NCBI GenBank assembly: GCA_963669175.1
Contig: OY769902.1
Span: forward strand, 2,496,001 to 2,560,000
Length of the DNA stretch: 64,000 nucleotides
Origin: a bacterium
Lineage (GTDB): Bacteria; Electryoneota; Electryoneia; Electryoneales; Electryoneaceae
Direction of reading: 5' to 3'
A program made the translations under genes and the position numbers. A model generated the notes under the pieces. The model did no database searches. It saw only the letters and a list, made by a program, of their open reading frames with translations, and was not told the origin of the DNA. Positions 14,701-53,920 of this stretch are shown in pieces (position 1 is the stretch's first letter; the number at the start of each line of letters is the position of its first letter).

Positions 14701-14853
14701 TTCACGCATCAGGATATAGGCAGGGACCAGCTCTTCAGGTTGCGCTGTTTGAAGCGCCCGTTGCAGAGCAGGGCTGATACTTCCTGCGCAAGCCGAAGAT
14801 ACTGTAATGAAGATGAGTATCAGCGTAATAAAGGTTGTCGAAAGACGTGCCAT
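11782..14853 (-). CDS. Secreted S8 (subtilisin-like) peptidase with carboxypeptidase-regulatory-like domain and C-terminal sorting domain
   Basis: Signal peptide; IIDTG, GHGS, SAGN, TSMACPH; WPNPFNS...YDILGR CTD. ATG 14853 follows GGAGG. Confidence 0.88.
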   Translation of the reverse strand: MARLSTTFITLILIFITVSSACAGSISPALQRALQTAQPEELVPAYILMRERPDPEYLSSLVNHLTRNDRSAIVWHELDKLARRSQADLLFYLGDMEAAGRVAEIESIRICNGIALRADPEVLQQIAQREDVYQVNDNALRTYPVEEPVVCDDLDELDEPSWNLERIGAVEARRDGYTGARILVAIIDTGVNWDHDDMINHLWDGGEEYPCHGWDFFDDDNDPTDTDGHGSSAAGILCGDGSAGDTTGVAPGATLMVLRVRSNLGSGVVTDTWLAQDFELQHGVDVSSMSLGWGNPNPEDRPVWRNNYNTLLAGGIISVKSAGNRSDIDPPGSISVPGDVPSPWRHPSETEQGTRSGLITIGGTTQSNEVLAASSRGPVTWQTVDPFFDYLLDDVHDGLIKPDLGAPASSGRTIARNNDQGYTTFGMTSMACPHGAGACALLLSKNPDLTPVELDSLLETYAVDLGDEGKDNTFGAGLIDVIAALDAIPVPMGTLSGTVIDVNTGEGMEGVRVEMVQRPRRHAYTDADGHYSFEAQTGGYSVRFIIPPLPEVIVNNINISEGQTANANAEIAGALIEVEPESLEAHFYDYYPEETIENLEISNPGSSQLEVALSISSVANDTFDFLEVLYQEDVVLDSAVIRGIDCSRSYISNFAMGYENGPDYINIAGRMFELPDYQTWPLGGKDMTNNGCYSYALTSFGLFGVYLYDYSRTTEINLETPLRAVCEIDSPGYRGGRDLFWGIQENGILVRFDDTGTILTQHDLDLYIDGLAWLWGDPDGYPLYMVGSTTDSVSNRLYKYSPFTHDIIDLGLLPEVDDEFNVIDLTVIEQRHDDFPMQFILAGLLQSETDSIPCRLQYWNLGVWFPWASLGTSHLSLAPDESATVPITFYCFDLRNSWGKVLLEHNTLEMETEISLHVRHHTPVEEIKNTTSLPQTCILNTPWPNPFNSVTRIPYYLPETADVRMVVYDILGREVTTLINRQVTSGYHDVLFTTESNIASGIYFIQMRVEGHGIYTQRMVYLK

Positions 14854-15026
14854 GAGTCCCTCCACTCCTGAACAGTCAGACAAAGCATGTGACCCTGATT
14901 TTCGGCAGTCAAGGAAAGCGCGTATAGAAAGTAGCGCCTGGATCAGGCATTTGACGGCAGAGATAACCTGTTACCAGTAAAATAGCATAAAGGAAAGGGG
15001 GAGGGGCAAGTCGGACAGGGAGCGAA

Positions 15027-24350: not shown

Positions 24351-24379
24351 TTGACAAACTGGGGTGAGAAGGTTACATT
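24351..24379 (+). promoter_or_regulatory. sigma70 promoter of the dcw operon
   Basis: TTGACA (24351-24356), 17 nt, TACATT (24374-24379). Confidence 0.85.
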
Positions 24380-24419
24380 GTGGGCGAAAAGGGAGCGAAG
24401 TGGGGCAAAGTGGAGCGAA
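24380..24419 (+). promoter_or_regulatory. MraZ-binding repeats
   Basis: GTGGG/AGGGA/GTGGG/GTGGA at 10-bp period (24380, 24390, 24400, 24410) directly after the -10 box, upstream of mraZ. Confidence 0.85.
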
Positions 24420-24545
24420 CTTCGGAATGAGTGATCGAGGTGGAAGAAGACAGGTCGCCGGATTGGACAGGGCGATACTTTTCACGCTTCGCATGCTTCC
24501 ATCGACTCGCACGGGGAGTGCAATCGTGTTCACGATGGCGGGATT

Positions 24546-25025
24546 GTGAGTTACTTCTACGAAACCCATCAAAACACCCTTGACGATAAAGGCCGTCTGG
24601 TAATCCCGGCGGCATTCAGGCGTGATGCGCCCCCGGAGATCCTCGCGGCAGACATGATGGTCACCCCGCACAAGGAGGGGTACCTGGAAGTCCGCCCTGA
24701 TGAAGAATGGCAAAAATACATCGAGTTTGTCAAGCAACAACCTGTGAGTGCGAAAGTCAAGCGGGAATACCTGCGAGCTCTTTACAGCACTTCACAGCGT
24801 GTTCGTATAGACCGTCAGAATCGCCTCATGCTTTCGCCCCGTTTGCGCAAGGTGGTAACCGGCACAGAAGATCCGGGCAAAGCAGAGGTCATCCTGCTGG
24901 GCGCCGGAACCTATTTCGAGATTCGTCCGACTGATTCCTTTGAGGGCGAAGATGCGATGATCGAGAAGGTTACGGACTTGCGGGATCAGGTCGAGGAAGC
25001 GATCGGGGAAGGGTTTTTCGGATGA
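24546..25025 (+). CDS. mraZ: Transcriptional regulator MraZ
   Basis: LDDKGRLVIPAAFR and IDRQNRLML motifs; first dcw gene. Confidence 0.92.
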   Translation: MSYFYETHQNTLDDKGRLVIPAAFRRDAPPEILAADMMVTPHKEGYLEVRPDEEWQKYIEFVKQQPVSAKVKREYLRALYSTSQRVRIDRQNRLMLSPRLRKVVTGTEDPGKAEVILLGAGTYFEIRPTDSFEGEDAMIEKVTDLRDQVEEAIGEGFFG

Positions 25026-25954
25026 GCGGGGTGGGGTGGAGTCCCCACGACCCGGTGTTGTGCGAACCGGTGATGGATCTACTGGTTCATGACTTGTCCG
25101 GCTCCTACCTGGATGCCACCGCCGGCGGCGGTGGCCACACCCAAGCACTGCTGAGACGATTGAACGAAAACGGACGGGTTATCGCTCTCGATCGTGACAG
25201 TGACGCCATCAGGCAGTTGAAACAGCGGTTTGAGTCAGATTCTCGGGTTACGGTTGTTCATTCCCCATTTGGCGAGTTGGATCAGGTTGGTGAAATCTTT
25301 GACCATTTACCGCTCGCCGGGGTTTTGTTCGATTACGGGGTATCCAGTCACATGTTGGATGTCGGCGAAAGAGGATTCAGTCATCGCGAAGAGGGTCCGT
25401 TGGATATGCGGATGGACCGTCGTAGCGGACTGACTGCGGCCGATGTCGTGAACGAATATGACCTGCACCGGCTGGTGAAGATTCTTTCGCAATATGGCGA
25501 AGAGCCGAGGTCGAAAAAGGTTGCTCGCAGCCTGGTGGAAGCGAGGCCGGTTCATACAACGACAGAGCTGGCAAATGTGCTCCGTCAGGCGGTTCCACAG
25601 CGTGACGAGGCGAAAACAGTCGCCCGTGTATTTCAGGCTATTCGTATCGAAGTGAACGGCGAGCTGGATGAAATCAAGGACGCGCTTCCACTGGCCGAGC
25701 AACGACTGGCGATTGGTGGCCGGATTGTTTGCATGGCCTATCACAGCCTGGAAGACAGGATTGTAAAACGCTATTTCGCGCAGCAGTCTCGTGATTGTTT
25801 CTGCGATCCGCATCAGCCGTTTTGTACCTGTGGTGGGGAAAACGCAACCCTGAAGCCGATCACACGCAAGGCCATCCAGGCGGATGATGCCGAAATCGCA
25901 AAGAATGTCCGGGCTCGCAGTGTCCGGGTACGTGCAGCGGAGAGGATACGATGA
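25022..25954 (+). CDS. rsmH: 16S rRNA m4C1402 methyltransferase
   Basis: HDPVL, DATAGGGGH, GVSS, PLDMRMD, FQAIRIEVN, YHSLEDR. Confidence 0.96.
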   Translation: MSGVGWSPHDPVLCEPVMDLLVHDLSGSYLDATAGGGGHTQALLRRLNENGRVIALDRDSDAIRQLKQRFESDSRVTVVHSPFGELDQVGEIFDHLPLAGVLFDYGVSSHMLDVGERGFSHREEGPLDMRMDRRSGLTAADVVNEYDLHRLVKILSQYGEEPRSKKVARSLVEARPVHTTTELANVLRQAVPQRDEAKTVARVFQAIRIEVNGELDEIKDALPLAEQRLAIGGRIVCMAYHSLEDRIVKRYFAQQSRDCFCDPHQPFCTCGGENATLKPITRKAIQADDAEIAKNVRARSVRVRAAERIR

Positions 25955-26421
25955 ACAAGCCGTCGACCTCAAAGACCATTATCCGGGATTATTACCGTGC
26001 GGCTGACCGTAAGCCCAGTCAACGTGTGCCGGTAAAGAAGTCGTCCCGTGGGTTCATGCTGATGCTGCTGATTCTTGGTTTCGTTCTTTCTGTGGCAAGT
26101 GTGTATATCGGCGTTGCACGGGTTTCCTATGGACGGAACATTCATCGCTTGCGTTCGGAAGTAAGCGAGCTGCGCAATGAAGTGCGTGACCTTGAAACTC
26201 AAAAAGCGCGTTTGTCTTCGTACTCGAATATTCAGGAAATAGCGGAATCGATGGGGATGAATTTTCCCCGTCAGGCTCCGAGAACTCTCCGGGTGAAGGT
26301 GCCGGGACATGCGGTTCCGCCGACCTGGAGCCGTGAATCGCTGGAAGCCAAATACGCCTATCGCAGTACAATCGCACCACCTCAAAACCTGTTGGCCCGG
26401 AAGGAGAAGGAAACGCCATGA
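25951..26421 (+). CDS. ftsL: Cell division protein FtsL-like
   Basis: Between rsmH and ftsI; one TM followed by a coiled coil and IQEIAESMGM. Confidence 0.75.
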   Translation: MNKPSTSKTIIRDYYRAADRKPSQRVPVKKSSRGFMLMLLILGFVLSVASVYIGVARVSYGRNIHRLRSEVSELRNEVRDLETQKARLSSYSNIQEIAESMGMNFPRQAPRTLRVKVPGHAVPPTWSRESLEAKYAYRSTIAPPQNLLARKEKETP

Positions 26422-28673
26422 AGCTGGATCGCCGGTGGAACACAAGACCCACTTTACCTGTGCCGATGTCACGGGGGCGGGTGCTTACGGTTCTTTCCGG
26501 GCTGCTGATCCTTGCTGGCGCAATCCTTTTCCGGTTGGGCGATATCCAGTTGGTCAAGCATTCGCAGTTTACCGAACGGGCAGAAAAGCAGTACCGCAAC
26601 CGCAGGCCGATCGAACCGCTCCGGGGACGCATCCTGGATCGTTGCGGCAATGAGCTGGTTGCCAACCTGCCGAACTACTACTCGGTAGGAGTTCGTCCCT
26701 CGGATGTGCGTGATGTGAATGGCCTGTCCAGGAAGCTGGCAACGATTCTGGAAGAGCCGGTCACGGCCATACGTGCGCAGATCGAAGGCGGCCGTTCATT
26801 TGTCTGGATCGAACGCAAGGTTCGTTCGCACCTGGCGCAGCAGATTGCGGCGCTGGGCGATTCTTCACTGGTGATTCAGCGTGAGACCAAGCGTGAGTAC
26901 ACCTACGGTCCCGTTGGCGGTCAGGTACTCGGCTTTGTCGATGTAGACAACAAGGGCCGTAGTGGAATTGAACATCAGTTTGAAACCGTCCTTGCCGGTG
27001 AACCCGGTTGGGAAGTGCTTCAGAAATACGGCAGCTATCGCCAGTTGATCAACCCGGATTATCCTCGTCAGGAAGCGGTGGATGGCGGTACGGTTGTTCT
27101 TTCCATCGATGTGAACGCCCAGGCCATTGCCGAGGAAGAGCTGGAAGAAGCGGTCGAGAAATACCATGCCGCAAACGGGATGATCATTGTGACCCGTCCT
27201 TCGACCGGGGAGATCCTGGCGATGGCATCCACCCCCCGGTACGATCCGAACGATCCCGGCGACTTCAGCGCCCTGGCACGTAAGAACCGCGTAGTTACCG
27301 ACGGCTACGAGCCCGGCTCAACCTTCAAGATTGTCACCTTTGCCGCGTTGGTTGAGCAGGATCGCATGAAGATTGACGAAGTGATCAATTGCGAAAATGG
27401 GCGTTATCAGGTAGCTGACAGGGTCATTCGCGACAGTCACCCGTACGACAGGCTGACGGCGGAAGGTGTCCTGGCGAAGAGCAGTAACATCGGTACGGCA
27501 AAACTGGCCGCGCGTCTCGAGCCCAAGGAATTCTACACGGCGATCCGTGATTTCGGCTTCGGTTCAGAGACCGGGATTGAATTGACAGGTGAGACCAACG
27601 GTATTCTGCTTCCGCCGAACAAGTGGAGTGGGGTTTCCCAGGCCAATATGTCCATCGGGCAGGGGATAACTGTTACAGCGCTTCAGCTTGCCATGGCGTA
27701 CGGCGCAGTGGCCAATAACGGCATGCTGATGAAGCCACTCCTGGTTCTTTCGGTGACTCATCCTGACGGGACCACGGAATTGCGTGAGCCGCAGCCGATT
27801 CGCCGGGTGGTGCGGCCCTCGACTGCTCGCATGCTACGCCTGATGCTGGAAGAAGCGGTAATCAACGGAACCGGCGGTAATGCAAAGATCGAAGGGATTC
27901 GCGTATCGGGCAAAACCGGTACGGCGCAGAAAGTGGATCACAAGAACAGGATGTACTACCAGGACCGTTACGTGTCCTCTTTCATCGGCATGACACCGAC
28001 CGAACATCCCGAGTACCTGTGCCTGGTGGTGATCGATGATCCCCGGGGGAATATCTACTATGGCGGTTCTATTGCCGCCCCGGTTTTCAAAAGTGTTATG
28101 GAGCGCTTGCTGGTTATCCTGCCACGGCAGGATGCCATGATGGCTGACTTGCCGGATATGGATGAACACGAACCGGCTTACCAGGGAATAGAAGTTCCTC
28201 ACCTGGTAACCCTGACTCGTCGAGAAGCCAACAATAGTCTTGGCAAACTTGGCCTGAAGCCTGAATGGCTGGGTGAAGGCGACGTGGTAATCGGGCAGGG
28301 AATTCCGCCGGGAACGTCCCTGCTGGAAGGGGCTACGGTGCAGGTCGTGCTTGGTCCCTGTGCGGTTCAGGAAGGGCGTGTGATGATTCCGGATCTGTCC
28401 GGACTCGATCTTCGAGAAGCCATAGCCACGCTTTCACGAATCGGAATTCGTGCTGTAGTGGATGGGAGCGGCCCGGTGACATGGCAGAATCCGGCACAAG
28501 GCGAATTCCTGGCTGTCGGTTCGGATTGTCATCTCTATGCAGGCGAAACAGGCGAACGTAAAAAACAGCAGAACCATAAAGCGGCGGAACGTCGCAGGCT
28601 GGCACAAGCAACACCGGAAGTCCAGAAAGATGAACCGGAAACCACAACCGAACCGGGAGGGCAGGCGCAATGA
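26418..28673 (+). CDS. ftsI: Class B penicillin-binding protein (FtsI/PBP3) with two PASTA domains
   Basis: RGRILDR, EPGSTFK, SSN, KTGT; two C-terminal VP/IPDL-type PASTA repeats. Confidence 0.93.
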   Translation: MKLDRRWNTRPTLPVPMSRGRVLTVLSGLLILAGAILFRLGDIQLVKHSQFTERAEKQYRNRRPIEPLRGRILDRCGNELVANLPNYYSVGVRPSDVRDVNGLSRKLATILEEPVTAIRAQIEGGRSFVWIERKVRSHLAQQIAALGDSSLVIQRETKREYTYGPVGGQVLGFVDVDNKGRSGIEHQFETVLAGEPGWEVLQKYGSYRQLINPDYPRQEAVDGGTVVLSIDVNAQAIAEEELEEAVEKYHAANGMIIVTRPSTGEILAMASTPRYDPNDPGDFSALARKNRVVTDGYEPGSTFKIVTFAALVEQDRMKIDEVINCENGRYQVADRVIRDSHPYDRLTAEGVLAKSSNIGTAKLAARLEPKEFYTAIRDFGFGSETGIELTGETNGILLPPNKWSGVSQANMSIGQGITVTALQLAMAYGAVANNGMLMKPLLVLSVTHPDGTTELREPQPIRRVVRPSTARMLRLMLEEAVINGTGGNAKIEGIRVSGKTGTAQKVDHKNRMYYQDRYVSSFIGMTPTEHPEYLCLVVIDDPRGNIYYGGSIAAPVFKSVMERLLVILPRQDAMMADLPDMDEHEPAYQGIEVPHLVTLTRREANNSLGKLGLKPEWLGEGDVVIGQGIPPGTSLLEGATVQVVLGPCAVQEGRVMIPDLSGLDLREAIATLSRIGIRAVVDGSGPVTWQNPAQGEFLAVGSDCHLYAGETGERKKQQNHKAAERRRLAQATPEVQKDEPETTTEPGGQAQ

Positions 28674-30130
28674 TGCTGCGTGAGATAGTTTCCCGGATTG
28701 AGAACGCAACATTGACCGGGCAGGGAAACGCTGAAATCACCGGTGTGCAATATGACAGCCGGAAGGTAAAGCCGGGTGACCTGTTCTGTGCGGTTGTGGG
28801 TGGAAAGTCTGATGGAAACAAGTTCATTCCGACGGCAATAGAAAAGGGCGCTGCCGCTATCCTGACCTCTAAGCCAGATGCGGTTCCGGCTGGTGTGGAA
28901 GCAATCCTTGTGGACAATGACCGCCTGGGAATGGCGCTGGCGGCGCATGCGCTGCATTATAAATTGCTTGAAAAAGTAGATATAATCGGCATCACCGGGA
29001 CCAATGGGAAAACCACCTGCAGCATCCTGGTGCAGTCTATCCTGAAGCATGCCGGGGCGAAAGTCGGGCGAATCGGGACTCTCGGCTGGGAATTTGAAGA
29101 CGATATCGAAGATGGCAAGCTGACAACCCCGGAAGCGCCGGACCTGGTGGCACGGATCGCCGAATGGGCCGAGAAGGGCGCAACCCATATCGTGATGGAA
29201 GTGACTTCCATCGCCCTCGACATGCACCGTGTGGCCGGGTTCAACTTCGTTGGAGGACTTTTCACCAACCTGAGCCAGGATCATCTCGACCTGCACGGAA
29301 CCATGGAAGCCTATTTCCAGGCCAAGAAGCAGTTCTTTGACAACATGGACAGCGACAGCCGTGCGGTGACCAACAGCCTGGACGATTACGGGCTGCGCAT
29401 GGTGGAGGGGATCACAGTGCCAGCGGTTGGTTTCGGTTTCAATCCTTTCTGCGATATCTGGGGAGTGCTGGAAGAAGAAACCGCGCGTGGTATGAAGATT
29501 CATGTCGGCGGAGTTTACGGTGAGTTGACTGTCAACGCGCCGTTGATCGGTCGTTTCAACGCGGAAAATGTGCTGGGTAGTGTATCCCTTATGCTGGCGT
29601 TGGGAATTCCGAAGGATGCCATTGTCGCTGGGATGGCAAATGTTCCGCAGGTACGTGGACGCATGGAACGTCTGCCACTCGAAGGAAACGTGACAGCGGT
29701 AATCGATTACGCCCACACACCGGAAGCCCTGCGGAAAGCGCTGGAAGCGCTTCGTCCAGCGACGCAAGGACAGTTGATCGTTGTGTTCGGAGCCGGTGGG
29801 GATCGTGACCGTGACAAACGCCCCAAGATGGGACGCGCTGCGGTTGAGCTGGCGGATCGTGTGTTTGTTACCAGCGATAATCCTCGTACAGAAGAACCCG
29901 CCACCATCGTAGAAGAAGTACTTAAAGGCGCAACGGGTGACAAAGTGACTGCTGTGGTTGATCGTCTTGAGGCCATTCGTGCTGCGCTTGATGAGGCTAA
30001 GCCTGGCGATACAGTTCTGATAGCAGGTAAAGGGCACGAAACCTATCAGGAGGTCAATGGCGTTCGTCACCATTTCGATGATCGTGAAGAGGTGTTGAAC
30101 TATCGCAATGCAGTCGCGGAGGTGAAATAA
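28670..30130 (+). CDS. murE: UDP-MurNAc-tripeptide synthetase (meso-DAP type)
   Basis: GITGTNGKTT, DHLDLH, DYAHTP, SDNPR, AGKGHE. Confidence 0.96.
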   Translation: MMLREIVSRIENATLTGQGNAEITGVQYDSRKVKPGDLFCAVVGGKSDGNKFIPTAIEKGAAAILTSKPDAVPAGVEAILVDNDRLGMALAAHALHYKLLEKVDIIGITGTNGKTTCSILVQSILKHAGAKVGRIGTLGWEFEDDIEDGKLTTPEAPDLVARIAEWAEKGATHIVMEVTSIALDMHRVAGFNFVGGLFTNLSQDHLDLHGTMEAYFQAKKQFFDNMDSDSRAVTNSLDDYGLRMVEGITVPAVGFGFNPFCDIWGVLEEETARGMKIHVGGVYGELTVNAPLIGRFNAENVLGSVSLMLALGIPKDAIVAGMANVPQVRGRMERLPLEGNVTAVIDYAHTPEALRKALEALRPATQGQLIVVFGAGGDRDRDKRPKMGRAAVELADRVFVTSDNPRTEEPATIVEEVLKGATGDKVTAVVDRLEAIRAALDEAKPGDTVLIAGKGHETYQEVNGVRHHFDDREEVLNYRNAVAEVK

Positions 30131-31542
30131 TGAAGATCAGTAAAAAAGTCCTCCGTGATGCCAAGATTGAAGTCTTCGGGAACTGGGATAACAACCTGCC
30201 GAAGGTTACCCAGGATAGCCGTGAAGTAGTTGAGGGTGGCCTGTTCTGGGCGTTGGTTGGTGAGAACAGTGATGGTCATGCCTATGTCGAAGCCGCATTG
30301 AAGGACAAGAAGGCTGGGATTGTAGCTGTTAATTATAACTGGTACGATAAATCAAAAGACCTGCTCGAAGGCCATACTGTCTTTGTCATGGAAGACACGC
30401 TGGTTGGTTTGCAGAGCCTGGCAACGCAGGTCCGCAAGTCCCTTGGATCAATTGTTGTGGCTATAACCGGCTCGAATGGCAAGACAACCACACGTGAGAT
30501 GATTGCGACTGCCTTGAGCGCTGCAGGTAAGACCGGGAAAAATATCAAGAATTACAACAATCACATCGGTCTGCCGCTTTCTATCCTGAACCTGGATGGT
30601 GACGAGAAGTATGTGGTGCTGGAGCTGGGCGCGAATCATATCGGCGAAATTGAAGAATTGAGCGCAATCGCACAGCCTGGAATCGGGCTGATTACCAATA
30701 TCGGTTCGGCGCACCTGGGCGAGTTTGGCGGAATTGACGAAGTTCAGAAAGCCAAGGGTGAGTTGTTTGAGTATGTATCCACTCGTGGCATGGCAGTGGT
30801 CAATCTTGACGATGACCGCGTTGTGCAAGCTGCTTTCAGTTGTCCACAGAAGGTTGGCTTCACCCTGAGTGAAACGCCTGCCAGCTGGTCTTCATCCATC
30901 TATTCCGGGAAGATCATCAGCCAGGACAAGTGGGGACGGCCTACACTGGCAGTTGAGGGAATGACCCTGAAGCTGAAACTGCCGGGACGCCATTTCGCAT
31001 CCGGCGCATTGGCTGCGTATACGGTCGGCATAGAAGCTGGTGTAGATCCCGGAACACTCATCCAGGCGTTGGAAACAGTTGAACCGCTGGCCGGACGCGG
31101 GATGATCATCGGGCTGGATCGTGGCATTGAACTGATGGACGAGAGCTATAACGCAAACGCGTCCTCAATTGAAACAGCATTGAATAGCCTGGCCCGTCAT
31201 GACGGGTATACAATCGCAGTACTGGGGGATGTGTTCGAGCTTGGTGCGTACGAAGAGGAAGAGCATCGTAGAATCGGACGGTTTCTGAGCCTGGAAGATG
31301 TGGATCGTGTGTACTTCGTAGGATCGCGGATGGCATGGGCAGCCGAGGAGGCGGACCTGTCCGGTCATCCCTGGGTGGAACGGATGGAAGCGGAAGATGT
31401 CGCTGATGTAGCGGCGCAAATCGCTGAAGATTGCCCGGATAACACCGCGATCCTGGTGAAGGGTTCACGCGCCATGGGGCTTGAACGTGTGGTGCTCGGC
31501 CTGGCAAGGAAGTTCAAGCCAAAGGCGGAGGGCGGCGCATGA
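30130..31542 (+). CDS. murF: UDP-MurNAc-pentapeptide ligase
   Basis: ITGSNGKTTT, NYNNHIGLP, ESYNAN, LVKGSR. Confidence 0.95.
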   Translation: MKISKKVLRDAKIEVFGNWDNNLPKVTQDSREVVEGGLFWALVGENSDGHAYVEAALKDKKAGIVAVNYNWYDKSKDLLEGHTVFVMEDTLVGLQSLATQVRKSLGSIVVAITGSNGKTTTREMIATALSAAGKTGKNIKNYNNHIGLPLSILNLDGDEKYVVLELGANHIGEIEELSAIAQPGIGLITNIGSAHLGEFGGIDEVQKAKGELFEYVSTRGMAVVNLDDDRVVQAAFSCPQKVGFTLSETPASWSSSIYSGKIISQDKWGRPTLAVEGMTLKLKLPGRHFASGALAAYTVGIEAGVDPGTLIQALETVEPLAGRGMIIGLDRGIELMDESYNANASSIETALNSLARHDGYTIAVLGDVFELGAYEEEEHRRIGRFLSLEDVDRVYFVGSRMAWAAEEADLSGHPWVERMEAEDVADVAAQIAEDCPDNTAILVKGSRAMGLERVVLGLARKFKPKAEGGA

Positions 31543-32909
31543 ACCCGGTTTATTCAAGTGGTGAACTGAAGGACAAGATGGCCTGGGTGATCGGTCTGGC
31601 GAGAAGCGGTTTTGCTGCAGCAAAGCTACTACGTTTGACCGGGGCTGAAGTTTTTGTGACTGAACGCAGTGATGCGTCCAATCTCGGCGACATGATCGCC
31701 GAACTCGAAGCGATGGGTGTGGAAGTTCAGGTCGGCGGGCATGACCTGAAGGGGAAAACGCCGCCGGATTTTGCGGTGGTAAGCCCTGGAATTCCGTTGA
31801 GTGCACCCGTTATCCAGTGGTTACGGGATCGTGGCCGTCCGGTGTACAGCGAAATCGAAGTGGCCTACTGGTTCTATTACGGGACAACCGTAGCGATCAC
31901 CGGAACCAACGGCAAGACCACCGTCACACGCTGGCTGACCCATATGCTGCGTGAAGCGGGGCTGGATGCTCGCGCGGCGGGGAACATCGGCTATCCTTTC
32001 TGTGACCTGGTACGTGAAAAACCACGCACAACCCACGCAATCACCGAAGTAAGCAGCTATCAGCTTGAATCGATTGCGTCGTTCCATCCGCATGTATCCG
32101 TGCTGACCAACATCACGGCGGATCACCTGGAACGTCATGGCAGCATGAAAAACTACGCGGCTGCCAAGGGACGGGTCTTTGAGAACCAGGAAGCGGAAGA
32201 CTTTGCGGTCATGCCCTATGGCGGTGAGCTGGTCGCCACGATTTCCTCCTGTGTTCGTGCCAGGAAACTGCTGGTCAGTATGGACCGGGTTCCGCATGAC
32301 GGCACAGGGTTCAAGGATGGTTTCCTGTGGTTGAGCCACGATGGCAAAAAAGTCCAGTTGATGGAAGCATCCGATTTACCGATTCCGGGCATGCATAATG
32401 TGGCGAATGCGTTGTGTGCATCGGCCGCGGCATGGGCGCTTCAACTGAGTGTGGATGAGATTCGTAAGGGCCTGCTCACCTTCAAGGGTGTGGAACACAG
32501 GCTGGAAACGATAAAAAGCAATGGCCGTATCTGGATCAATGATTCCAAAGCGACCAATGTGGATAGCCTGAAGGTTGCGCTAGAAGCCGTGAAAGGCAAA
32601 GTCTGGCTGATCGCGGGTGGTAAGGATAAGGGCGCTCCCTATGAACCGCTTCGCAACCTGGTGAAGGAAAAGGTAAAGCGTCTGCTGCTTATCGGTGAAG
32701 GCGCGGATCGTATTCAGGACGAACTTGGTGACCTGGTTCAGGCCGAAATGTGTGCAACGCTCGATAACGCTGTAAAGCTGGCGAATCTTCAGGCGGAACA
32801 TGGTGATACGGTCCTGTTGTCCCCGGCCTGCGCAAGCTTTGATCAATACGAGAACTTCGAAGTTCGTGGGGAAGCGTTCCGGAAACTGGTTGAGGAGGTA
32901 ACAGCCTGA
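31539..32909 (+). CDS. murD: UDP-MurNAc-L-Ala:D-Glu ligase
   Basis: GLARSG, SPGI, EVSSYQL, NDSKATN, LSPACASFD. Confidence 0.96.
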   Translation: MNPVYSSGELKDKMAWVIGLARSGFAAAKLLRLTGAEVFVTERSDASNLGDMIAELEAMGVEVQVGGHDLKGKTPPDFAVVSPGIPLSAPVIQWLRDRGRPVYSEIEVAYWFYYGTTVAITGTNGKTTVTRWLTHMLREAGLDARAAGNIGYPFCDLVREKPRTTHAITEVSSYQLESIASFHPHVSVLTNITADHLERHGSMKNYAAAKGRVFENQEAEDFAVMPYGGELVATISSCVRARKLLVSMDRVPHDGTGFKDGFLWLSHDGKKVQLMEASDLPIPGMHNVANALCASAAAWALQLSVDEIRKGLLTFKGVEHRLETIKSNGRIWINDSKATNVDSLKVALEAVKGKVWLIAGGKDKGAPYEPLRNLVKEKVKRLLLIGEGADRIQDELGDLVQAEMCATLDNAVKLANLQAEHGDTVLLSPACASFDQYENFEVRGEAFRKLVEEVTA

Positions 32910-34117
32910 TGGGAACGACCGTCCGCATAAAAAGCCAGGGAGGACGCCGCGAGGGTGGATCGCAGGCAGTGCCGCTCACTGCGCCACCGCAGGCGAATCA
33001 AGGCATTGATCATGTGTTGCTGGCCATCATCCTGGTGCTGACGGTTGTCGGGTTGGTATCGGTGTATTCGGCCTCAAGCGAACGCTCTATCGCACAATAC
33101 GGCAGCGCACACGCGATGTTCATTCGCCAGGCGGCGCGTGCAATGGCAGGGTTGGCCATTATGGGCGTGATGGCGTGGATGCCCTACCGTTTCTGGCGCA
33201 AGCTGGGAATCCCGGCTGTGGTGGTAAGCGCGTTTTTGTTGATCCTGGTGTTCTTTGGTAACCTGGGGCATTCCAGCCACGGTGCTCAGCGCTGGCTGAC
33301 CCTTGGCCCGGTTCGTTTCCAGCCTTCAGAGCTGGCGAAGTTTTCGATCGTTCTGTTTATCGCTTCCTGGGCGTATTCACGCGGCGACCGGATGAAGAAG
33401 GCCGGTACCGGAATGCTGATTCCGTTGGGTGTTGCTATACTGTTGGCCGGGATGATTGCCTGGCAGCCTGACTTTTCCACGGCAGCCCTGCTGATGGTGA
33501 TTTCGCTGGCAACGGTGTTTGTTTCCGGAGCCAATATCGTCCATCTCGGCATCCTCGTCGGGCCGCTCAGCCTGGCGGCGGGGATGTTTGCCTGGATGGA
33601 ACCTTATCGTCGCGCACGGATCATGAGTTTCCTGTCGCCATTTGCCGATCCGGAATCCGCCGGATACCAGATCCTCCAATCCTGGATCGGGTTTGGGCGT
33701 GGCGGTCTGTTCGGTGTCGGCGCAGGGGCAAGCCGTCAGAAGCTGTTTTTCCTGCCGGACTCGCACACGGACTTCATCTTCAGCGTGGTTGGAGAAGAGT
33801 GGGGCTTTTTCGGGGCGACGATCCTTGTGGTTCTGTTCCTCGCACTGGCATGGCGTGGTTTCCGGATCGGGATGCGCTGCCCGGACGCCTTCGGAAGTTA
33901 CCTGGCTGTAGGATTCACCTTTGTCATCGGTTTATACGCTCTGTTCAACATGGGAATTGCGGTGGGGGTACTTCCGACCACGGGATTGCCGCTTCCCTTT
34001 ATCAGCTACGGCGGTACATCACTGCTGTTAACCTATGCCGCTATGGGAGTGGTGTTGAGTATTTCAAGATATGGTCATCCACGGATGCAAGCACGGCAAC
34101 ACGGAGAAGAAGATTGA
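32909..34117 (+). CDS. ftsW: Peptidoglycan glycosyltransferase FtsW
   Basis: GAQRW, FQPSELAK, QPDF, HTDFIF, LPFISYGG. Confidence 0.95.
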   Translation: MGTTVRIKSQGGRREGGSQAVPLTAPPQANQGIDHVLLAIILVLTVVGLVSVYSASSERSIAQYGSAHAMFIRQAARAMAGLAIMGVMAWMPYRFWRKLGIPAVVVSAFLLILVFFGNLGHSSHGAQRWLTLGPVRFQPSELAKFSIVLFIASWAYSRGDRMKKAGTGMLIPLGVAILLAGMIAWQPDFSTAALLMVISLATVFVSGANIVHLGILVGPLSLAAGMFAWMEPYRRARIMSFLSPFADPESAGYQILQSWIGFGRGGLFGVGAGASRQKLFFLPDSHTDFIFSVVGEEWGFFGATILVVLFLALAWRGFRIGMRCPDAFGSYLAVGFTFVIGLYALFNMGIAVGVLPTTGLPLPFISYGGTSLLLTYAAMGVVLSISRYGHPRMQARQHGEED

Positions 34118-35559
34118 CACACCTGCAACGAAAGATGAAACGCATTCACTTTGTCGGTATCGGCGGTATCGGCATGAGCGGTATTGCTGAGTCGCTGGCT
34201 GCGCAGGGATTTGAGATTACCGGCAGCGATCTGAGCGAATCCGCGATTACCGAACACCTGGTGGAGTGCGGTTGCACGGTGTACAAGGGGCACAAGGCGG
34301 AAAACGTGCAGGATGTGAACGCTTTGGTCTACAGCAGCGCTGTGGATCGTGAGAATCCTGAAATCGTGGAAGCCCGCCGTTTGGGTATCCCGGTGATCCG
34401 TCGTGCGGAGATGCTGGCAGAATTAATGAGACTGAAATCCGGAATCGCGGTTGCCGGAACACATGGCAAGACCACAACCACTTCCATGATCGGTCACATT
34501 CTGACCGAAGCGGGACTTGATCCTACGGTTATCGTGGGCGGTGTTGTACGTGGGCTGGGCACCAACGCCCGTCTGGGTAACAGTGAATTGCTGGTGGCCG
34601 AAGCGGACGAGTATGACCGCAGTTTCCTGAAGCTGACCCCGGTGCTGGCGGTGTTGACCACGCTGGAGGCAGAGCATCTGGATACCTACGGCACCTATGA
34701 AGCCTTGCGCGAGGCGTTCCTCACGTATGCCAACTCGGTTCCGTTCTATGGACTGGTTGCGGTTTGCACCGACGAGCCGAACCTGGTTGATCTTCTGCCG
34801 GAACTGGATCGCCCGGTAATCACTTATGGCACCAATCCTCATGCCGATCTGCGTATCAGTGATCTTGAATCAGGTGTAATGAGCAAATGCACAATCTGGC
34901 GCGGCGCGGAAAAGCTGGGAATACTGGAACTGCCGCTTCCCGGCTTGCACAACCTGAGAAATGCTTTGGGCGCTTTATCCGTCGCGCTTGAATTGGATGT
35001 GCCGTTTGATTCTGCCGTTGCAGCCCTACGGGGATTCAGTGGAGTGAAGCGTCGGTTTGAGCTGCGTGGTGAGGAACTGGGTGTGGCGGTTTATGATGAT
35101 TACGCCCATCACCCGACAGAGGTGAAGGCGACATTGACCGCTGCACGAGAAGCGTTTAACGGTCGCCGTATCGTGGGAATTTTTCAGCCGCACCTGTATT
35201 CACGAACCCAGACTTTTTACAAGGAATTTGCACAGGCGCTGCTACTGGCAGACCTGTTGATGGTGTCTGATGTCTACCCGGCACGGGAAAAGCCGATTGA
35301 AGGGGTGACCGGGCGGATGATTGTAGAGCAGGCGCAGAAATTCGGGCATCGCAATGTTCATTACCTGCGCCGTCGTGAAGAGATCGTTCATAAACTGTCG
35401 CCCATGCTGGAAGAAGGCGACCTGGTGATTACCCTTGGCGCAGGTGACATCTACAAGACCAGCGATGAAGTGCTGGAAGCGCTTCGCAAGCGGGAAGAGG
35501 AAAAGAATCGTGGTCCAAACCGACCTTATGGTGTCTATCGCCCGGACAGCCAGGGGTAA
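34114..35559 (+). CDS. murC: UDP-MurNAc:L-Ala ligase
   Basis: IHFVGIGGIGMSG, GTHGKTTT, EADEYD, DDYAHHP, FQPH. Start probably TTG 34114 (or ATG 34135), not 33799. Confidence 0.95.
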   Translation: MTHLQRKMKRIHFVGIGGIGMSGIAESLAAQGFEITGSDLSESAITEHLVECGCTVYKGHKAENVQDVNALVYSSAVDRENPEIVEARRLGIPVIRRAEMLAELMRLKSGIAVAGTHGKTTTTSMIGHILTEAGLDPTVIVGGVVRGLGTNARLGNSELLVAEADEYDRSFLKLTPVLAVLTTLEAEHLDTYGTYEALREAFLTYANSVPFYGLVAVCTDEPNLVDLLPELDRPVITYGTNPHADLRISDLESGVMSKCTIWRGAEKLGILELPLPGLHNLRNALGALSVALELDVPFDSAVAALRGFSGVKRRFELRGEELGVAVYDDYAHHPTEVKATLTAAREAFNGRRIVGIFQPHLYSRTQTFYKEFAQALLLADLLMVSDVYPAREKPIEGVTGRMIVEQAQKFGHRNVHYLRRREEIVHKLSPMLEEGDLVITLGAGDIYKTSDEVLEALRKREEEKNRGPNRPYGVYRPDSQG

Positions 35560-36427
35560 GGTGCGGACGGACGTCCCCCTTGCGCCCTATACGTCCTACA
35601 AAATCGGCGGCCCGGCTGCGGTGCTGTTCGAACCGGAAACGGAAGAATCCGTGGGGCAACTGCTGCATGATGCTGCCGAAGCGGAAGTTCCGGTACTGGT
35701 GATCGGTGGCGGCTGCAACATGCTGATCGCTGATTCGGGATGGCATGGGATTGCGCTTCACATGGGCGAAGGTTTGGCGTCATTGGACTTTGATCAGGAT
35801 CACGTCTCAGTTCAGGCCGGGGCAAAACTGATGAACCTGGTGCGTGAATCGGTGCGTCACGGCTTCAGCGGAATGGAATTGATGGCTGGCATCCCGGGTA
35901 CGGTTGGCGGCGCGCTAAGGATGAATGCCGGCGCTTTCGGGCAGGAAATTGAAGCGACTGTGACAACAGTACGTGGTTTCGGTCTGTGGGGTAAGCCCTT
36001 TGAATTGAAACGGAAGCGGATCGCGTTCGGTTATCGAACGGCTCCGGAACTGGACGACAAGGTTATTACATCGGCAGAATTCAGCTACACACAGGAAAAT
36101 CCTGAATTCCTGGTAAACCGGATGAATGAAGTGTTAAAGGTCCGCAATCAAAAGCAGCCATTGGAGCATCCGTCCTGCGGCAGCGTTTTCAAGCGTCCCC
36201 CAGGCTATTTCGCCGGGTCGTTGATTGAGGAATCGGGATTGAAGGGCAAGCGGGTCGGTGGCGCAGTAGTCAGCGAGAAACACGCGGGATTCATTCTGAA
36301 TGATCGTAACGCCACGGCCGCAGATGTTCGTGAACTGATTTGGATTGTTGAAGAGACGGTAAACAAGAAGTTCGGAGTCAGGCTGGAGCGTGAAGTCAAG
36401 TTAATCGGATTTGATGATGCGATTTGA
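35510..36427 (+). CDS. murB: UDP-N-acetylenolpyruvoylglucosamine reductase
   Basis: IGGPA, GIPGTVGGALRMNAGA, GSVFKRP, SEKHA, LEREV; start approximate. Confidence 0.94.
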   Translation: MVQTDLMVSIARTARGKVRTDVPLAPYTSYKIGGPAAVLFEPETEESVGQLLHDAAEAEVPVLVIGGGCNMLIADSGWHGIALHMGEGLASLDFDQDHVSVQAGAKLMNLVRESVRHGFSGMELMAGIPGTVGGALRMNAGAFGQEIEATVTTVRGFGLWGKPFELKRKRIAFGYRTAPELDDKVITSAEFSYTQENPEFLVNRMNEVLKVRNQKQPLEHPSCGSVFKRPPGYFAGSLIEESGLKGKRVGGAVVSEKHAGFILNDRNATAADVRELIWIVEETVNKKFGVRLEREVKLIGFDDAI

Positions 36428-37541
36428 ACCGACGAAAAGCAGTCGCAAGCGGCGTCAGAAGGTGTCTGCACGTCCTTCCTCGCGGAGGGTGTACAGCTCT
36501 ATCGCCTCGTCGCAACCGCGTACTGGTCGGAAAAAGCGTAAAATCGGACGCAAACTGCTTGGCTTGATAGTGATTGGTGTAATCGGATGGCAGGGATACG
36601 CCAACAAGGACACAATCCTTGGCTGGTTCGACCGTCCGGAAAAACCAAACGTAGCCACTACAGAACAGGCAGCGCCGATTGACAGTATCGGGGTGAGTAA
36701 GCGGTTGGCGGAGACGATACGGCAGCATCGTGAGATCATGCTGGAAACACTGGAGTTGCCGGACACCACGGTTCTTTACAAGGCCAATACGGATACGGCA
36801 GCAGATGCGCCAACGCTGGTAAGCGTGTTAAATGATTCCGCTGATCTGACATTCTGGCAGCGGATCAATCCGACACGACTGATGAACAACCTGTTTTCCG
36901 TGCAGGATGTTCGCATTTCCGGCGTGTTGAGCATATCGCAGGATACGATTCAAACGCTGATTGGCGATGTGACTGATCAGGGCATGTTCGATCTGGACCT
37001 GGAAGCGCTTGCGGAACGGGTGAACCAGCATTCACGGGTACAACATACTGTTATTCGCCGACGCTTGCCCAGCACGTTGATGGTGGATGTACAGGAACGG
37101 CGTGAGATCATGCTGGTGGTAAGCAGTGGGAAACTGCTTGGCGTAGATCGTGAAGGTGTCGTACTTGGCGAACCGAATCCGGGCTGGCCGCTGGATGCGC
37201 CGGTTGTGACCGGGTATCACGGCAAACTGAATCCCGGTGAGATGGTAGAAGATCCCGGTTTGCTGTCAGCGTTGACCTGGGCGCGTCATGCGTCCAACCG
37301 TCCGCTGGTCGGCGACTGGATCAGTGAGATGCACCTTGATAACGGTATCGTAGACTTTGTGCAGGGTGCAGGCAATGTGCAGGTGCAGCCCGGCGATCAC
37401 GCGATCGTAGCACAGGTGGCGGCATTGCACGCTTTTCTCGCCGGATTAGGCGAGTCGAAAAACGAAAACAATATTGTTGATATGAGATTCCCCGGTTTCA
37501 TCATCCTGAAACATGATGAAGCGGACCGGCGGAAAGGGTAA
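36414..37541 (+). CDS. ftsQ: Cell division protein FtsQ/DivIB-like (extended)
   Basis: Basic N-tail, TM, POTRA (FSVQDVRISG...RRLPSTLMVDVQER), C-terminal VDMRF; lies directly before ftsA. Confidence 0.82.
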   Translation: MMRFEPTKSSRKRRQKVSARPSSRRVYSSIASSQPRTGRKKRKIGRKLLGLIVIGVIGWQGYANKDTILGWFDRPEKPNVATTEQAAPIDSIGVSKRLAETIRQHREIMLETLELPDTTVLYKANTDTAADAPTLVSVLNDSADLTFWQRINPTRLMNNLFSVQDVRISGVLSISQDTIQTLIGDVTDQGMFDLDLEALAERVNQHSRVQHTVIRRRLPSTLMVDVQERREIMLVVSSGKLLGVDREGVVLGEPNPGWPLDAPVVTGYHGKLNPGEMVEDPGLLSALTWARHASNRPLVGDWISEMHLDNGIVDFVQGAGNVQVQPGDHAIVAQVAALHAFLAGLGESKNENNIVDMRFPGFIILKHDEADRRKG

Positions 37542-37562
37542 AACAGACAGGGTGGAGGTCCC

Positions 37563-38816
37563 ATGGCTACAGGAAGCAACATGATTGTCGGCCTGGACCT
37601 GGGAACAACAAAGATTTCGACGATCATCGCGGAAATTGGCGAGTCCGGCACGCCGAACGTGGTAGGTGTCGGTTATTGCAAAGCCCAGGGCATGAAGCGC
37701 GGCGTGGTGATCAACATTGATAAGACGATCGAGGCCATCGAGAAATCGATTGCCGAAGCGGAACGTATGGCCGGTGTCCATGTGAGTTCGGTCTACACCG
37801 GAATCGCGGGCGACCATATCCGTTCGATCAACAGCAAGGGCGTGATTGCGATCAGCCGCGCCGGGGCGCGTGAACGCACCGGCATCATCACCCATGAGGA
37901 TGTGGACCGGGTGATCGAAGCGGCCAAGGCGGTCAACCTTCCGATGGATCAGGAAGTGCTTCATGTGCTGCCGCAGACGTTCACGGTTGATGATCAGACC
38001 AATATCCCCGAACCGGTAGGTATGGCCGGGGTGAGGCTGGAAGCGGATGTACACATCATCACCGGAGCGGTTGCCAGTGCGCAGAACATCTTCCGCTGTG
38101 TGAAACAGGCGGGGATTTCCATTCAGGATCTCGTACTGGAACCACTGGCGTCTTCGTATTCCGTGCTGACACCTGATGAAAAGGAATTGGGTGTCTGCCT
38201 GATCGATATCGGTGGAGGTACATCGGATATCGCCGTGTTCCAGGAAAGCGCTATCCGGCATACCTCGGTCATCGGGCTTGGTGGTGAGAATGTGACCAAA
38301 GACCTGGGTGTGGGATTACGAACCCCGATTTCCCAGGCGGAACGGATCAAGGTGGAATACGGGCACTGTTACCTGCCGTATGTGGATACGGAAGAGCAGG
38401 TCGAGATTCCCGGCATCGGCGGACGTGCGCCGCAAGTCGTGCCGCGAACCCTGGTCGCTGAAATTATCCAGCCACGAATGGAAGAGATTTTCGAGCTTTC
38501 CGCTGCACAGATCCGTAAAGCGGGTGTCTGGGACAAAATGACCTGCGGTATTGTGCTTACCGGTGGCGGTTGTCAGCTCGAAGGCACGGTGGAACTGGCG
38601 GAACAGATTTTCGAATTGCCGGTCAAGATCGGTTACCCGACAGGTTTGGGCGGCCTGATGCAATCGGCGAACAATCCTACGCACGCAACCGGAGTCGGAC
38701 TGGTGTTGTTTGGCCTCGATCAGGAGGGTACTACTGATCCGCTCCGTGGAGACGATACGACGATTTTCAAGAAGATAGGCAGGAGGATGAAAGAATGGTT
38801 CGAAGACTTTTTCTAG
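37563..38816 (+). CDS. ftsA: Cell division protein FtsA
   Basis: GLDLGTTKI, IDIGGGTSD, AERIKVEYG, VLTGGG, C-terminal amphipathic MKEWFEDFF. Confidence 0.97.
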   Translation: MATGSNMIVGLDLGTTKISTIIAEIGESGTPNVVGVGYCKAQGMKRGVVINIDKTIEAIEKSIAEAERMAGVHVSSVYTGIAGDHIRSINSKGVIAISRAGARERTGIITHEDVDRVIEAAKAVNLPMDQEVLHVLPQTFTVDDQTNIPEPVGMAGVRLEADVHIITGAVASAQNIFRCVKQAGISIQDLVLEPLASSYSVLTPDEKELGVCLIDIGGGTSDIAVFQESAIRHTSVIGLGGENVTKDLGVGLRTPISQAERIKVEYGHCYLPYVDTEEQVEIPGIGGRAPQVVPRTLVAEIIQPRMEEIFELSAAQIRKAGVWDKMTCGIVLTGGGCQLEGTVELAEQIFELPVKIGYPTGLGGLMQSANNPTHATGVGLVLFGLDQEGTTDPLRGDDTTIFKKIGRRMKEWFEDFF

Positions 38817-38896
38817 AGGTGAGAAACAAAGCGAGGCGGTCCACGGGGCCGGACGATTCACATAATGCTTCACCCCAGCAGGAGGGAGGCCAGGAG

Positions 38897-40981
38897 ATGG
38901 CAGACCAGTTTGAAAGACGTCAGGAAGACCAGCGCCCATTGAGCGTTCGGGACATCATGCAATCCGACCCCGCACTTGAAGACTCCTTTGACGGGGTGGA
39001 CGAAGGCACTCACGCCGCCGGTACCGAAGGGCACCTGCTTCAGCAGAAGATGCAGGCTGCAGCCGCCGCCAACCGTGCGTGGCTCGATGACAGCCCCTTC
39101 GACTTGAGCAAGCCGGAACCGCGCGCGCAGGTGGAGGAGAATGATTTTACCAGCGAAACTGAAGACTTCGGAGAGGTCGAGGAAGTCGAAGAGGAACAGG
39201 ATTTCGTGGGTGAGTTCGAAGAAGAAGAAACCACCGACGAAATCGAAGAACTTTCCTTTGACGAAGGCGACCTGTTCGAGTCTGAAGAAGACATGGACAA
39301 GGAATACCCGGTCGACGAGGATGACATCGACCTGGATATCACCTTGAGCGTGGGCGAAACGGAAGAAGAGGAAGAGGAAGTCCTCGACGCCGGTGAACTG
39401 GACACGGAAGACGATCTGGAAGCCTCACAGGAATTTGCGGACAGCCTGGAAGGCGATTTCACCGAAGCCGTAGAAGAAGCCGAACTGGAAGAAGAAGAGC
39501 TGGTCGAAGACGAGTTGGTTGAAGAAGAGGCCAGCGTTGCCGAGATCATGGAAAACGACGAAACGATTGAAGAAGAGCCGATGCCGGTTGATGAGATCAC
39601 TTCCCATGTGGAAGACGCGATGATGGGCCGTGTGGTGTCTCAGGACAGTTACATGACCGAAGAAGAGGAGAAAGAAGCGGTGGGCAATACTCTGCGTTTC
39701 GGATTCCAGGAGCAATCCGAGTACCGTGCACGGATGAAGGTGATCGGCGTGGGCGGCGCCGGGTCAAACGCCGTGGACAACATGATCTCCAGTAACCTGC
39801 TCGGGGTTGAATTCATCTGTCTGAACACCGACAGCCAGGCATTGGATGCCAGCCAGGCCTCCCGCAAAATGCAGATCGGCAAGGAAGTCACCCGTGGCCT
39901 GGGAGCCGGTGGCGATCCATGCGTAGGGCAGGCGGCTGCGGAAGAAGATGTGGAAATGATCAAGAAGATGCTGGAAGATACCGACATGGTCTTCGTCGCG
40001 GCGGGTATGGGCGGCGGCACCGGTACCGGCGCAGCCCCGATCGTAGCCGGACTGGCTCGTGAACGTGGTATCCTCACTGTCGGCATCGTAACCAAACCAT
40101 TCAGCTTCGAAGGCTCCAAGCGCACCAAGCGAGCCGTCGAAGGTATCAAGGCGATGAAGGACAATGTTGATACGCTGATCGTGATCCCGAACGACCGTCT
40201 GCTCCAGATCATCGATGAGAACGTGACCTTCAAGGCCGCGTTCCGTAAGGCGGACGAGGTCCTGTTCCAGGGCACCAAGGGCATCAGCGATATCATCAAC
40301 ACCCGTGGTCATGTCAACCTCGACTTCGCCGATGCCAAATCAGTCATGGCGAACAGTGGTGACGCCATCATGGGCATGGGAGTCGCGGAAGGCGAGAATC
40401 GTGCGGTCCTGGCGGCGGAAGCGGCCATCACCAGCCCATTGCTGGATAACCTGAGCATTGAAGGCGCGCAGGGCATCATTATCAATATTACCGGCAATGA
40501 GAAGCTGGGGATGCTGGAAGTCCAGAAGGCGGTTGACCTGGTGACACAGCGTGCCGGCGACAATGCGGACGTCTTCTTCGGTATCGTCAACGACGAAGGT
40601 ATGGGTGACAAGGTCAGCGTAACCGTAATCGCCACCGGTTTCGCCCGTAAGGATACCATCCGGACCAAGCGTGTCGATACAGAAGCGTCCGAGGGCTTTG
40701 GCCGTAGCCGCACCGAAACCACCTCCATCCATGACCGTTTCAACTTCGGGAACGGCAATGGTAACGGGAACGGAAATGGCAATGGCAACGGTAACGGAAA
40801 TGGTCACGGAAATGGCAACGGCCACAGCGAAAAGCCGACCAAGTTCCTCCGTGTCGAAGCGGACGAAGAAGATGTCGTTTTGGATGAAGTGGTCGATATC
40901 GATGTGGAAAACATGGATAAAGATGACCATGATCTGCCCGCTTTCCTGCGCCGGAATAAGAAGAACAACTGGAGAAGGTAG
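38897..40981 (+). CDS. ftsZ: Cell division protein FtsZ with long acidic N-terminal extension
   Basis: VIGVGGAGSNA, GGGTGTG, NLDFAD, C-terminal DLPAFLRR. ATG 38897 follows AGGAG; possible second start GTG 39680. Confidence 0.93.
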   Translation: MADQFERRQEDQRPLSVRDIMQSDPALEDSFDGVDEGTHAAGTEGHLLQQKMQAAAAANRAWLDDSPFDLSKPEPRAQVEENDFTSETEDFGEVEEVEEEQDFVGEFEEEETTDEIEELSFDEGDLFESEEDMDKEYPVDEDDIDLDITLSVGETEEEEEEVLDAGELDTEDDLEASQEFADSLEGDFTEAVEEAELEEEELVEDELVEEEASVAEIMENDETIEEEPMPVDEITSHVEDAMMGRVVSQDSYMTEEEEKEAVGNTLRFGFQEQSEYRARMKVIGVGGAGSNAVDNMISSNLLGVEFICLNTDSQALDASQASRKMQIGKEVTRGLGAGGDPCVGQAAAEEDVEMIKKMLEDTDMVFVAAGMGGGTGTGAAPIVAGLARERGILTVGIVTKPFSFEGSKRTKRAVEGIKAMKDNVDTLIVIPNDRLLQIIDENVTFKAAFRKADEVLFQGTKGISDIINTRGHVNLDFADAKSVMANSGDAIMGMGVAEGENRAVLAAEAAITSPLLDNLSIEGAQGIIINITGNEKLGMLEVQKAVDLVTQRAGDNADVFFGIVNDEGMGDKVSVTVIATGFARKDTIRTKRVDTEASEGFGRSRTETTSIHDRFNFGNGNGNGNGNGNGNGNGNGHGNGNGHSEKPTKFLRVEADEEDVVLDEVVDIDVENMDKDDHDLPAFLRRNKKNNWRR

Positions 40982-41082: not shown

Positions 41083-41114
41083 GGCACCCCATCTGAAAAG
41101 GTGGGGTGTTTTTT
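41083..41114 (+). terminator. Intrinsic terminator of the dcw operon
   Basis: GCACCCCATCT-GAAA-AGGTGGGGTGT followed by TTTTT. Confidence 0.85.
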
Positions 41115-52048: not shown

Positions 52049-52097
52049 CGCTTTGATCCGTTTAAACCGATCCTGTCGAGAACGCAGAGTTTTGCCA

Positions 52098-53729: not shown

Positions 53730-53869
53730 ACTTCCTCCCAAAGTGGACGTCATCTTTGAAAAGCATGAGGATGCTGTAGTAAATAATGTGATTCAAATTA
53801 CGCTGAATTCCTTTACAATACAAGCGTTCAGGGGTACTGTAACGATTTGACCAGATAATCAACCGTTTC

Positions 53870-53920
53870 AAAAAACAAGGGCACGATGAGCAGCAACTTC
53901 GCCGCTGACCGTGCCCGTTG
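53870..53920 (-). terminator. Intrinsic terminator between the two lipoprotein genes
   Basis: Minus strand GGGCACG..CAGCGGCGAAGTTGCTG..CGTGCCC-TTGTTTTTT. Confidence 0.7.

Follow-up and report, generated by a model that had tools for sequence, protein, structure and literature searches.

The 64,000-nucleotide window analysed here (positions 2,496,001 to 2,560,000 of contig OY769902.1, GenBank assembly GCA_963669175.1; coordinates below count from its first letter), from an uncultured bacterium, carries a division and cell wall (dcw) gene cluster that lacks both mraY and murG, the genes for the two lipid-linked steps of lipid II synthesis. According to the open reading frame (ORF) map and the family scans, the cluster occupies 24546 to 40981 of the + strand, in the order mraZ-rsmH-ftsL-ftsI-murE-murF-murD-ftsW-murC-murB-ftsQ-ftsA-ftsZ. 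Gene identities were assigned by a Pfam scan, complemented with NCBIfam for ftsI, murE, murF, murD, ftsW, murC, murB and ftsZ. The co-oriented run of mraZ, rsmH, ftsL, ftsI, the mur ligases, ftsW, ftsQ, ftsA and ftsZ in their conserved order identifies it as a dcw cluster. A complete cluster also has mraY between murF and murD and murG between ftsW and murC, and the window has neither.

The cluster starts with mraZ (24546..25025; PF02381, E 1e-20), rsmH, also called mraW (25022..25954; PF01795, E 4e-88), and ftsL (25951..26421; PF19579 FtsL_2, E 3e-6). These are followed by ftsI (26418..28673), which encodes a class B penicillin-binding protein with two PASTA domains, a murE of the meso-diaminopimelate type (28670..30130), and murF (30130..31542; TIGR01143, 351 bits against a cut-off of 288.6). 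Next are murD (31539..32909; TIGR01087, 393 bits), ftsW, encoding the SEDS lipid II polymerase (the acronym standing for shape, elongation, division and sporulation) (32909..34117; TIGR02614, 375 bits), murC (34114..35559; TIGR01082, 525 bits), and murB (35510..36427; NF010480, 328 bits), for which a GTG start is inferred within a longest ORF that begins at 35435. The last genes are ftsQ (36411..37541), which encodes a long protein of 376 residues with a POTRA domain from residue 162, ftsA (37563..38816; Pfam), and ftsZ (38795..40981), which encodes 728 residues, with a mostly acidic N-terminal extension of about 310 residues and the GTPase domain from residue 314. Upstream of mraZ, the best sigma-70-like promoter match (TTGACA-17-TACATT; 24351..24379, + strand) agrees with the consensus at 10 of 12 positions; five promoter-like sites were found, against 8.6 expected by chance, and what singles this one out is its position. 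A terminator-like hairpin of 12 pairs followed by a T run (41083..41110, + strand), which is a consensus match only, lies after ftsZ.

Both sites where a gene is missing are closed without a gap. At the murF/murD junction (31539..31542), the usual site of mraY, the end of murF overlaps the murD start codon at 31539 in an ATGA. At the ftsW/murC junction (34114..34135), the usual site of murG, the ftsW stop codon TGA occupies 34115-34117 and is overlapped by a TTG in the murC frame at 34114. The other possible murC start is an ATG at 34135, 17 bases further on, and with either start there is no room for murG. Hence, the overlaps at 31539-31542 and 34114-34117 described by an earlier model-made reading of the letters (the sequence-only reading, hereafter) are both confirmed in the sequence.

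Profiles were built from the 62 MraY, 66 MurG and 31 Ddl sequences of the retrieved loci and run with --max on six-frame fragments of at least 20 residues. No gene or remnant of mraY, murG or ddl was detected anywhere in the 64-kb window, the best E-values being 7.1, 2.7 and 0.62, respectively. In control loci, the same profiles detected intact mraY and ddl, as well as, at the end of a contig, a 34-residue piece of mraY (E 2e-11). In addition, the comparison of 45 window translations with Pfam (38 plus 7, six of the latter being repeats) yielded no glycosyltransferase or phosphoglycosyl transferase family. The ORF map, the Pfam and NCBIfam scans and the six-frame profile search thus bear out the gene order, the flush junctions and the lack of remnants. 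The absence of ddl from the cluster, where it is not found between murB and ftsQ, is ordinary, as had been anticipated: the 64 kb hold no trace of it, and the loss of ddlB from the dcw cluster is described as typical of the FBC superphylum (PMC8871954; here and below, papers are cited for the sections retrieved).

A second species, represented by locus L001 (WJJA01000191.1), has the order murF-murD-ftsW-murC-murB-ftsQ-ftsA-ftsZ, with 4-base overlaps at 1164-1167 (murF/murD) and 3697-3700 (ftsW/murC). Identity between the window and L001 is 68-69% for MurC, 55% for FtsW and 55% for MurD, and the frames are open. Mis-assembly, which the sequence-only reading had named as a way in which its claim could fail, was checked against this independent record and does not hold: both junctions are identically arranged in L001 and the window sequence contains no N, so an assembly artefact is ruled out for practical purposes.

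The rarity of the arrangement was assessed on the best 80 of at least 598 murC loci obtained in a MurC genome scan, a sample that is neither random nor complete, and loci that lack a flanking gene or are too short were excluded from the junction counts. Between murF and murD, mraY is missing in 2 of 60 covering loci (L001 and L023). Between ftsW and murC, murG is missing in 6 of 75 (L001, L012, L017, L023, L044 and L079). Both genes are missing in two of the 60 loci that span both junctions, namely L001 and L023. Together with the L001 junctions, these values uphold the earlier description of the gap as clean, real and unusual.

A MurD search returned the window's own protein, on a contig of 5,447,365 bases, and 24 others with 51-76% identity, one of them named Ca. 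Electryonea clarkiae, followed by a sharp drop from 525 to 393 bits. In a FastTree phylogeny of 101 MurD rows, the 26 clade rows, including L001 and Ca. Electryonea clarkiae, are set apart from the others by a branch that has an SH support of 100, and the clade falls inside a group resembling the Fibrobacterota-Chlorobiota-Bacteroidota (FCB) group, as seen with one gene and a quick method. Electryonea belongs to the phylum Electryoneota, AABM5-125-24 (PMC9324843), and, judging from these MurD relationships, the window organism is an Electryonea-related lineage of this phylum. In Ca. Tariuqbacter, which represents another Electryoneota class, murF, mraY, murD, ftsW and murG are ORFs 5, 4, 3, 2 and 1 of one contig (PMC10439189). 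Given that the standard order is kept there, the gap is derived within the phylum. The absence of both genes from the dcw cluster across the whole Electryonea-related clade is an extrapolation from the two members seen at the DNA level.

MurB, MurC, MurD, MurE and MurF build UDP-MurNAc-pentapeptide, of the meso-diaminopimelate type, and the polymerisation and cross-linking of lipid II fall to FtsW-FtsI. The catalytic motifs of MurC to MurF, FtsW and FtsI are intact, MurF being above its cut-off yet the most divergent. FtsI retains SxxK at 301, SxN at 355 and KTG at 499, FtsW retains TDF at 287, and MurE has DNPR at 403, motifs which we take to have their usual meanings. In comparison with canonical loci, all near-invariant columns are retained in FtsI (35/35) and FtsW (26/26), and eight of nine proteins retain conserved columns to a degree spanned by the canonical loci when these are left out one at a time, MurD and MurB being close to the lower limit. 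With catalytic motifs retained in the Mur ligases, FtsI and FtsW, the window organism very probably continues to make lipid II, and since FtsW-FtsI consume lipid II, something must make lipid I and lipid II.

MurF can be aligned over its full length with MurF chains of solved structure. The changes common to the window and L001 include N292 to G, P344 to A or G, K122 to R, and M368 to V; they are partly conservative, and each is present in some form in one to four of 52 references. MurE has EVTSI, in comparison with EVSSH in five of the six references printed, the sixth giving no match. As a side observation, the motif deviations of MurF (30130-31542) and the EVTSI of MurE (28670-30130) may reflect a substrate change.

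Both FtsZ and FtsQ carry additional sequence. The open frame upstream of the FtsZ core spans 324 codons in the window and 297 in L001, against a median of 35 among 65 ftsZ loci. This extension (38795-39730 in the window) is mostly acidic, with 38% D+E over 275 residues from 38897 in the window, and 34% in L001. The six best single-domain FtsZ representatives (P0362-P0367; 547-734 residues), which score 462-555 bits before a drop to 374, all start with M-V-x-x-x-F-L from an ATG that overlaps the end of ftsA, as does the window protein. This shared overlapping ATG, an AGGAGG 8 bases upstream of the window start, and the L001 frame, which opens at the same position, suggest the ftsZ start at 38795 is probably real. 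Assuming that P0362-P0367 belong to the clade, the extension appears, from these sequences, to be a clade trait; our literature search found no description of an acidic N-terminal FtsZ extension. The C-terminal linker of FtsZ carries an NG repeat, and a further representative of 840 residues (P0361) has two matched stretches and is possibly a tandem FtsZ. FtsQ is about 120 residues longer than in loci L002 or L040, with extra sequence both before and after the membrane segment, and this is common to L001.

With a probability of about 0.7, we consider that ordinary mraY and murG genes have been relocated elsewhere in the genome, perhaps as a pair, and that orthologues outside the window most likely complete lipid II synthesis. 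As a gene-order variant of the dcw cluster the locus is real, conserved and rare, and relocation probably explains it. The operon would be transcribed from upstream of mraZ, where the promoter-like match is not above chance, and would be translationally coupled, mraY and murG having been cleanly removed once functional copies lay elsewhere. Since cells normally cannot do without either gene, each deletion requires that another copy was there first. One economical route would be the duplication or movement of a mraY-murD-ftsW-murG block followed by reciprocal loss, a single event that would account for both gaps and leave mraY and murG side by side at another place; relocation in two independent steps would be about as likely. 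Precedents exist within the sample, since murG is gone while mraY stays in three loci (full-length mraY in L044 and L079, and a fragment at a contig end in L017), which suggests that an exit from the dcw cluster need not mean loss of the pathway. The history of the cluster has likewise been described as one of gene loss or delocalisation, with the cyanobacterial genes present but dispersed (PMC8871954), and in Streptococcaceae mraY and murG belong to separate sub-clusters (PMC8136486). Both papers present delocalised dcw genes as common. In the phylum itself, a GT28 protein is tabulated for 11 of 12 AABM5-125-24 genomes, the remaining genome being 67% complete (PMC9727166, SD11/SD3; 30 of the 54 GT28 rows of SD11 were covered, with the AABM5-125-24 rows first), and the full-length GT28 proteins have 360-372 residues.

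Several observations weigh against relocation. No mraY or murG was seen in the window genome or in genomes assignable to the clade, the sequence examined here being the 64-kb window, and only two clade genomes were seen at the DNA level. The 12 tabulated AABM5-125-24 genomes are not assignable to the window's clade, and their GT28 genes are not placeable relative to the dcw cluster. In MurF, whose reaction comes immediately ahead of that of MraY, the retention of conserved columns is 0.843 in the window and 0.841 in L001, below the minimum of 0.882 among the 52 canonical references. Moreover, the departure of mraY from its site is rare (2/60) and murG is gone both times, a coincidence that hints at coupling. 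The sequence-only reading had gone further and taken the exact loss of these two enzymes to imply one coupled cause. This is weakened by the sister loci L079, which lacks murG only, and L023, which lacks both, as they look like stepwise erosion.

A fusion of MraY and MurG encoded elsewhere in the genome would account for the two gaps with one gene, and such a chimera is named in the discussion of PMC10214165, although the supplement legend there gives MraY-MurD instead. A fusion was defined as one ORF with PF00953 together with PF03033/PF04101, searched in candidate sets of up to 8000 proteins. The best 120 of 288 long MraY proteins (668-2000 residues) have no GT28 domains, nearly all being MraY joined to Mur ligases, and the best 120 of 164 long MurG proteins (642-2000 residues) have no PF00953. 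None of these 240 proteins lies on the window's contig, and the reciprocal hidden Markov model searches were empty, a negative that is weak by the tool's own note. With 0/240 among these best long proteins, the fusion suggested earlier is disfavoured, and we grant it a very slight chance. The same search revealed that 65 of the 120 listed long MurG proteins (P0267-P0359) form one clade, in which HEAT repeats occur in most members and 15 carry MurJ as well, an architecture that is possibly a stand-alone lipid II synthase-flippase module. Two MurG-HEAT-MurJ members are named Ca. Aminicenantes, and look-alikes in the atlas are mostly Acidobacteriota and Latescibacterota. No link of this family to the window genome emerged: the 120 listed proteins include no match on the window's contig, and the atlas taxa point elsewhere.

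The existence of this clade nevertheless lends some plausibility to a displacement, in which the two steps passed to a distant GT28 paralogue, MglA-like or of the MurG-HEAT(-MurJ) type, and to a MraY that was imported or paralogous, with deletion of the dcw copies afterwards. In Kitasatospora and Streptomyces, MglA takes the place of MurG (PMC8092295), and the GT28 proteins of the five genomes of class AABM5-125-24 have no Hotpep MurG peptide matches in the tabulated data, and thus may be divergent (PMC9727166). However, none of the 120 listed long MurG proteins lies on the contig of the window or on that of clade member P0014, and there is no comparable lead for a substitute of MraY; we regard a displacement as unlikely. 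We are somewhat more doubtful still that the clade is devoid of MraY and MurG orthologues and that another phosphoglycosyl transferase and another glycosyltransferase supply its lipid II, or a modified wall precursor on a lipid carrier. The drift in the motifs of MurF and MurE would then correspond to an altered precursor or hand-off, and the acidic extension of FtsZ to a divisome that was rebuilt. Non-homologous synthesis of lipid II, with another phosphoglycosyl transferase and glycosyltransferase (e.g., with GlcNAc loaded on the carrier first) feeding FtsW-FtsI, would fit the disappearance of exactly the two lipid-linked steps in two species with intact upstream and downstream enzymes, as well as the deviant MurF of both species, with shared changes at HNxxN and YNANP, and EVTSI for EVSSH in MurE. 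Yet the Pfam scan of the window yielded no candidate enzyme, some of the MurF changes are conservative and each recurs in a few canonical loci, our literature search returned no precedent, and GT28 is present in most tabulated Electryoneota genomes (11/12, PMC9727166), which makes this scenario very improbable.

It is equally improbable that lipid II has been truly lost, with a wall without peptidoglycan reached or approached and the remaining genes kept as relics or repurposed. The related group LCP-89 reportedly misses peptidoglycan genes. Its atypical cell wall is the subject of a title (Youssef et al. 2019), and the odd extensions of FtsZ and FtsQ would suit such a loss. Against it stand the full retention of near-invariant columns in FtsW (26/26) and FtsI (35/35), the conservation of open frames between the window and L001 (68% identity in MurC and 55% in FtsW), the large genome (a 5.45 Mb contig), and the GT28 proteins in 11 of the 12 tabulated genomes of the phylum (PMC9727166).

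Elsewhere in the window, large secreted proteins with C-terminal sorting domains resembling those of the type IX system are encoded at 11782-14883, 41659-45384, 57290-60187 and 60707-63970. They include subtilase, PKD-repeat and right-handed beta-helix-like types, as expected for FCB bacteria. The region from 41.7 to 48 kb has a lower GC content (0.41-0.44) and includes an FRG-domain gene. On the - strand, 50567-55606 holds two paralogous-looking lipoprotein-like ORFs of 551 and 544 residues and a 523-residue ORF with the appearance of an outer-membrane barrel; neither the pair nor the barrel-like ORF has a significant Pfam match.

The meaning of the locus depends on where the two activities reside. 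If the genes were merely relocated, the gap marks the lineage cleanly and adds a little to the picture of dcw cluster evolution, and if mraY and murG sit together elsewhere, they form a lipid-cycle module worth a note. If they are truly absent, the clade breaks the rule that lipid II needs MraY and MurG, points to unknown wall enzymes, and bears on the disputed wall of Electryoneota/LCP-89. To our knowledge, no walled bacterium is a free-standing exception to the nearly universal route through MraY and MurG, and the clade would be the first. Among published supplements, that of PMC9727166 lists none of K01000, K02563, K01925, K00075, K00790, K01921, K03531, K01924 and K03438, and that of PMC9324843 contains none of five wall terms. 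In the open literature, no published description of a dcw layout without mraY and murG was found.

In comparison with the canonical FCB-type dcw clusters of L002 (Ignavibacteriota), L040 and Ca. Tariuqbacter arcticus, the window has the same order from mraZ to ftsZ, with murB after murC and no ddl. It differs in the excision of mraY and murG with flush junctions, and in the long N-terminal additions on FtsZ and FtsQ. The murG-less clusters (L012 and L044 of Rokubacteria, L017 and L079) also have ftsW directly followed by murC. However, L044 and L079 retain mraY between murF and murD, L017 has a mraY fragment before murD, and L012 stops short of the murF/murD junction. L023 lacks both genes at the same junctions as the window, but the two are not related in the MurD tree; L023 retains ddl, its murB is degenerate, and no ftsQ-ftsA-ftsZ comes after ddl, which indicates a wider erosion. 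L079:913-15259 and L023:2-11921 are themselves sister loci in the MurD tree (SH 100) with an eroding dcw cluster: the former is without murG and ftsA, and the latter without mraY, murG and an ftsQAZ run after ddl, its murB having a Pfam E of 0.002. The Enterobacterales label of L023 looks wrong, as the locus has 68% GC and its MurD is outside the gammaproteobacterial group.

Among characterized systems, MglA of Kitasatospora and Streptomyces (PMC8092295) resembles the window in that lipid II is made despite a missing dcw murG. There, however, a GT28 paralogue is responsible, as established by experiment after an engineered deletion, whereas the window lacks mraY as well and shows no substitute enzyme. 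In Streptococcaceae and Cyanobacteria, whose dcw clusters are split or dispersed (PMC8136486, PMC8871954), mraY and murG are separated from part of their usual neighbourhood but present. Those arrangements result from sub-cluster breaks or from full dispersal, whereas in the window two genes have been excised singly from an operon that is complete in other respects.

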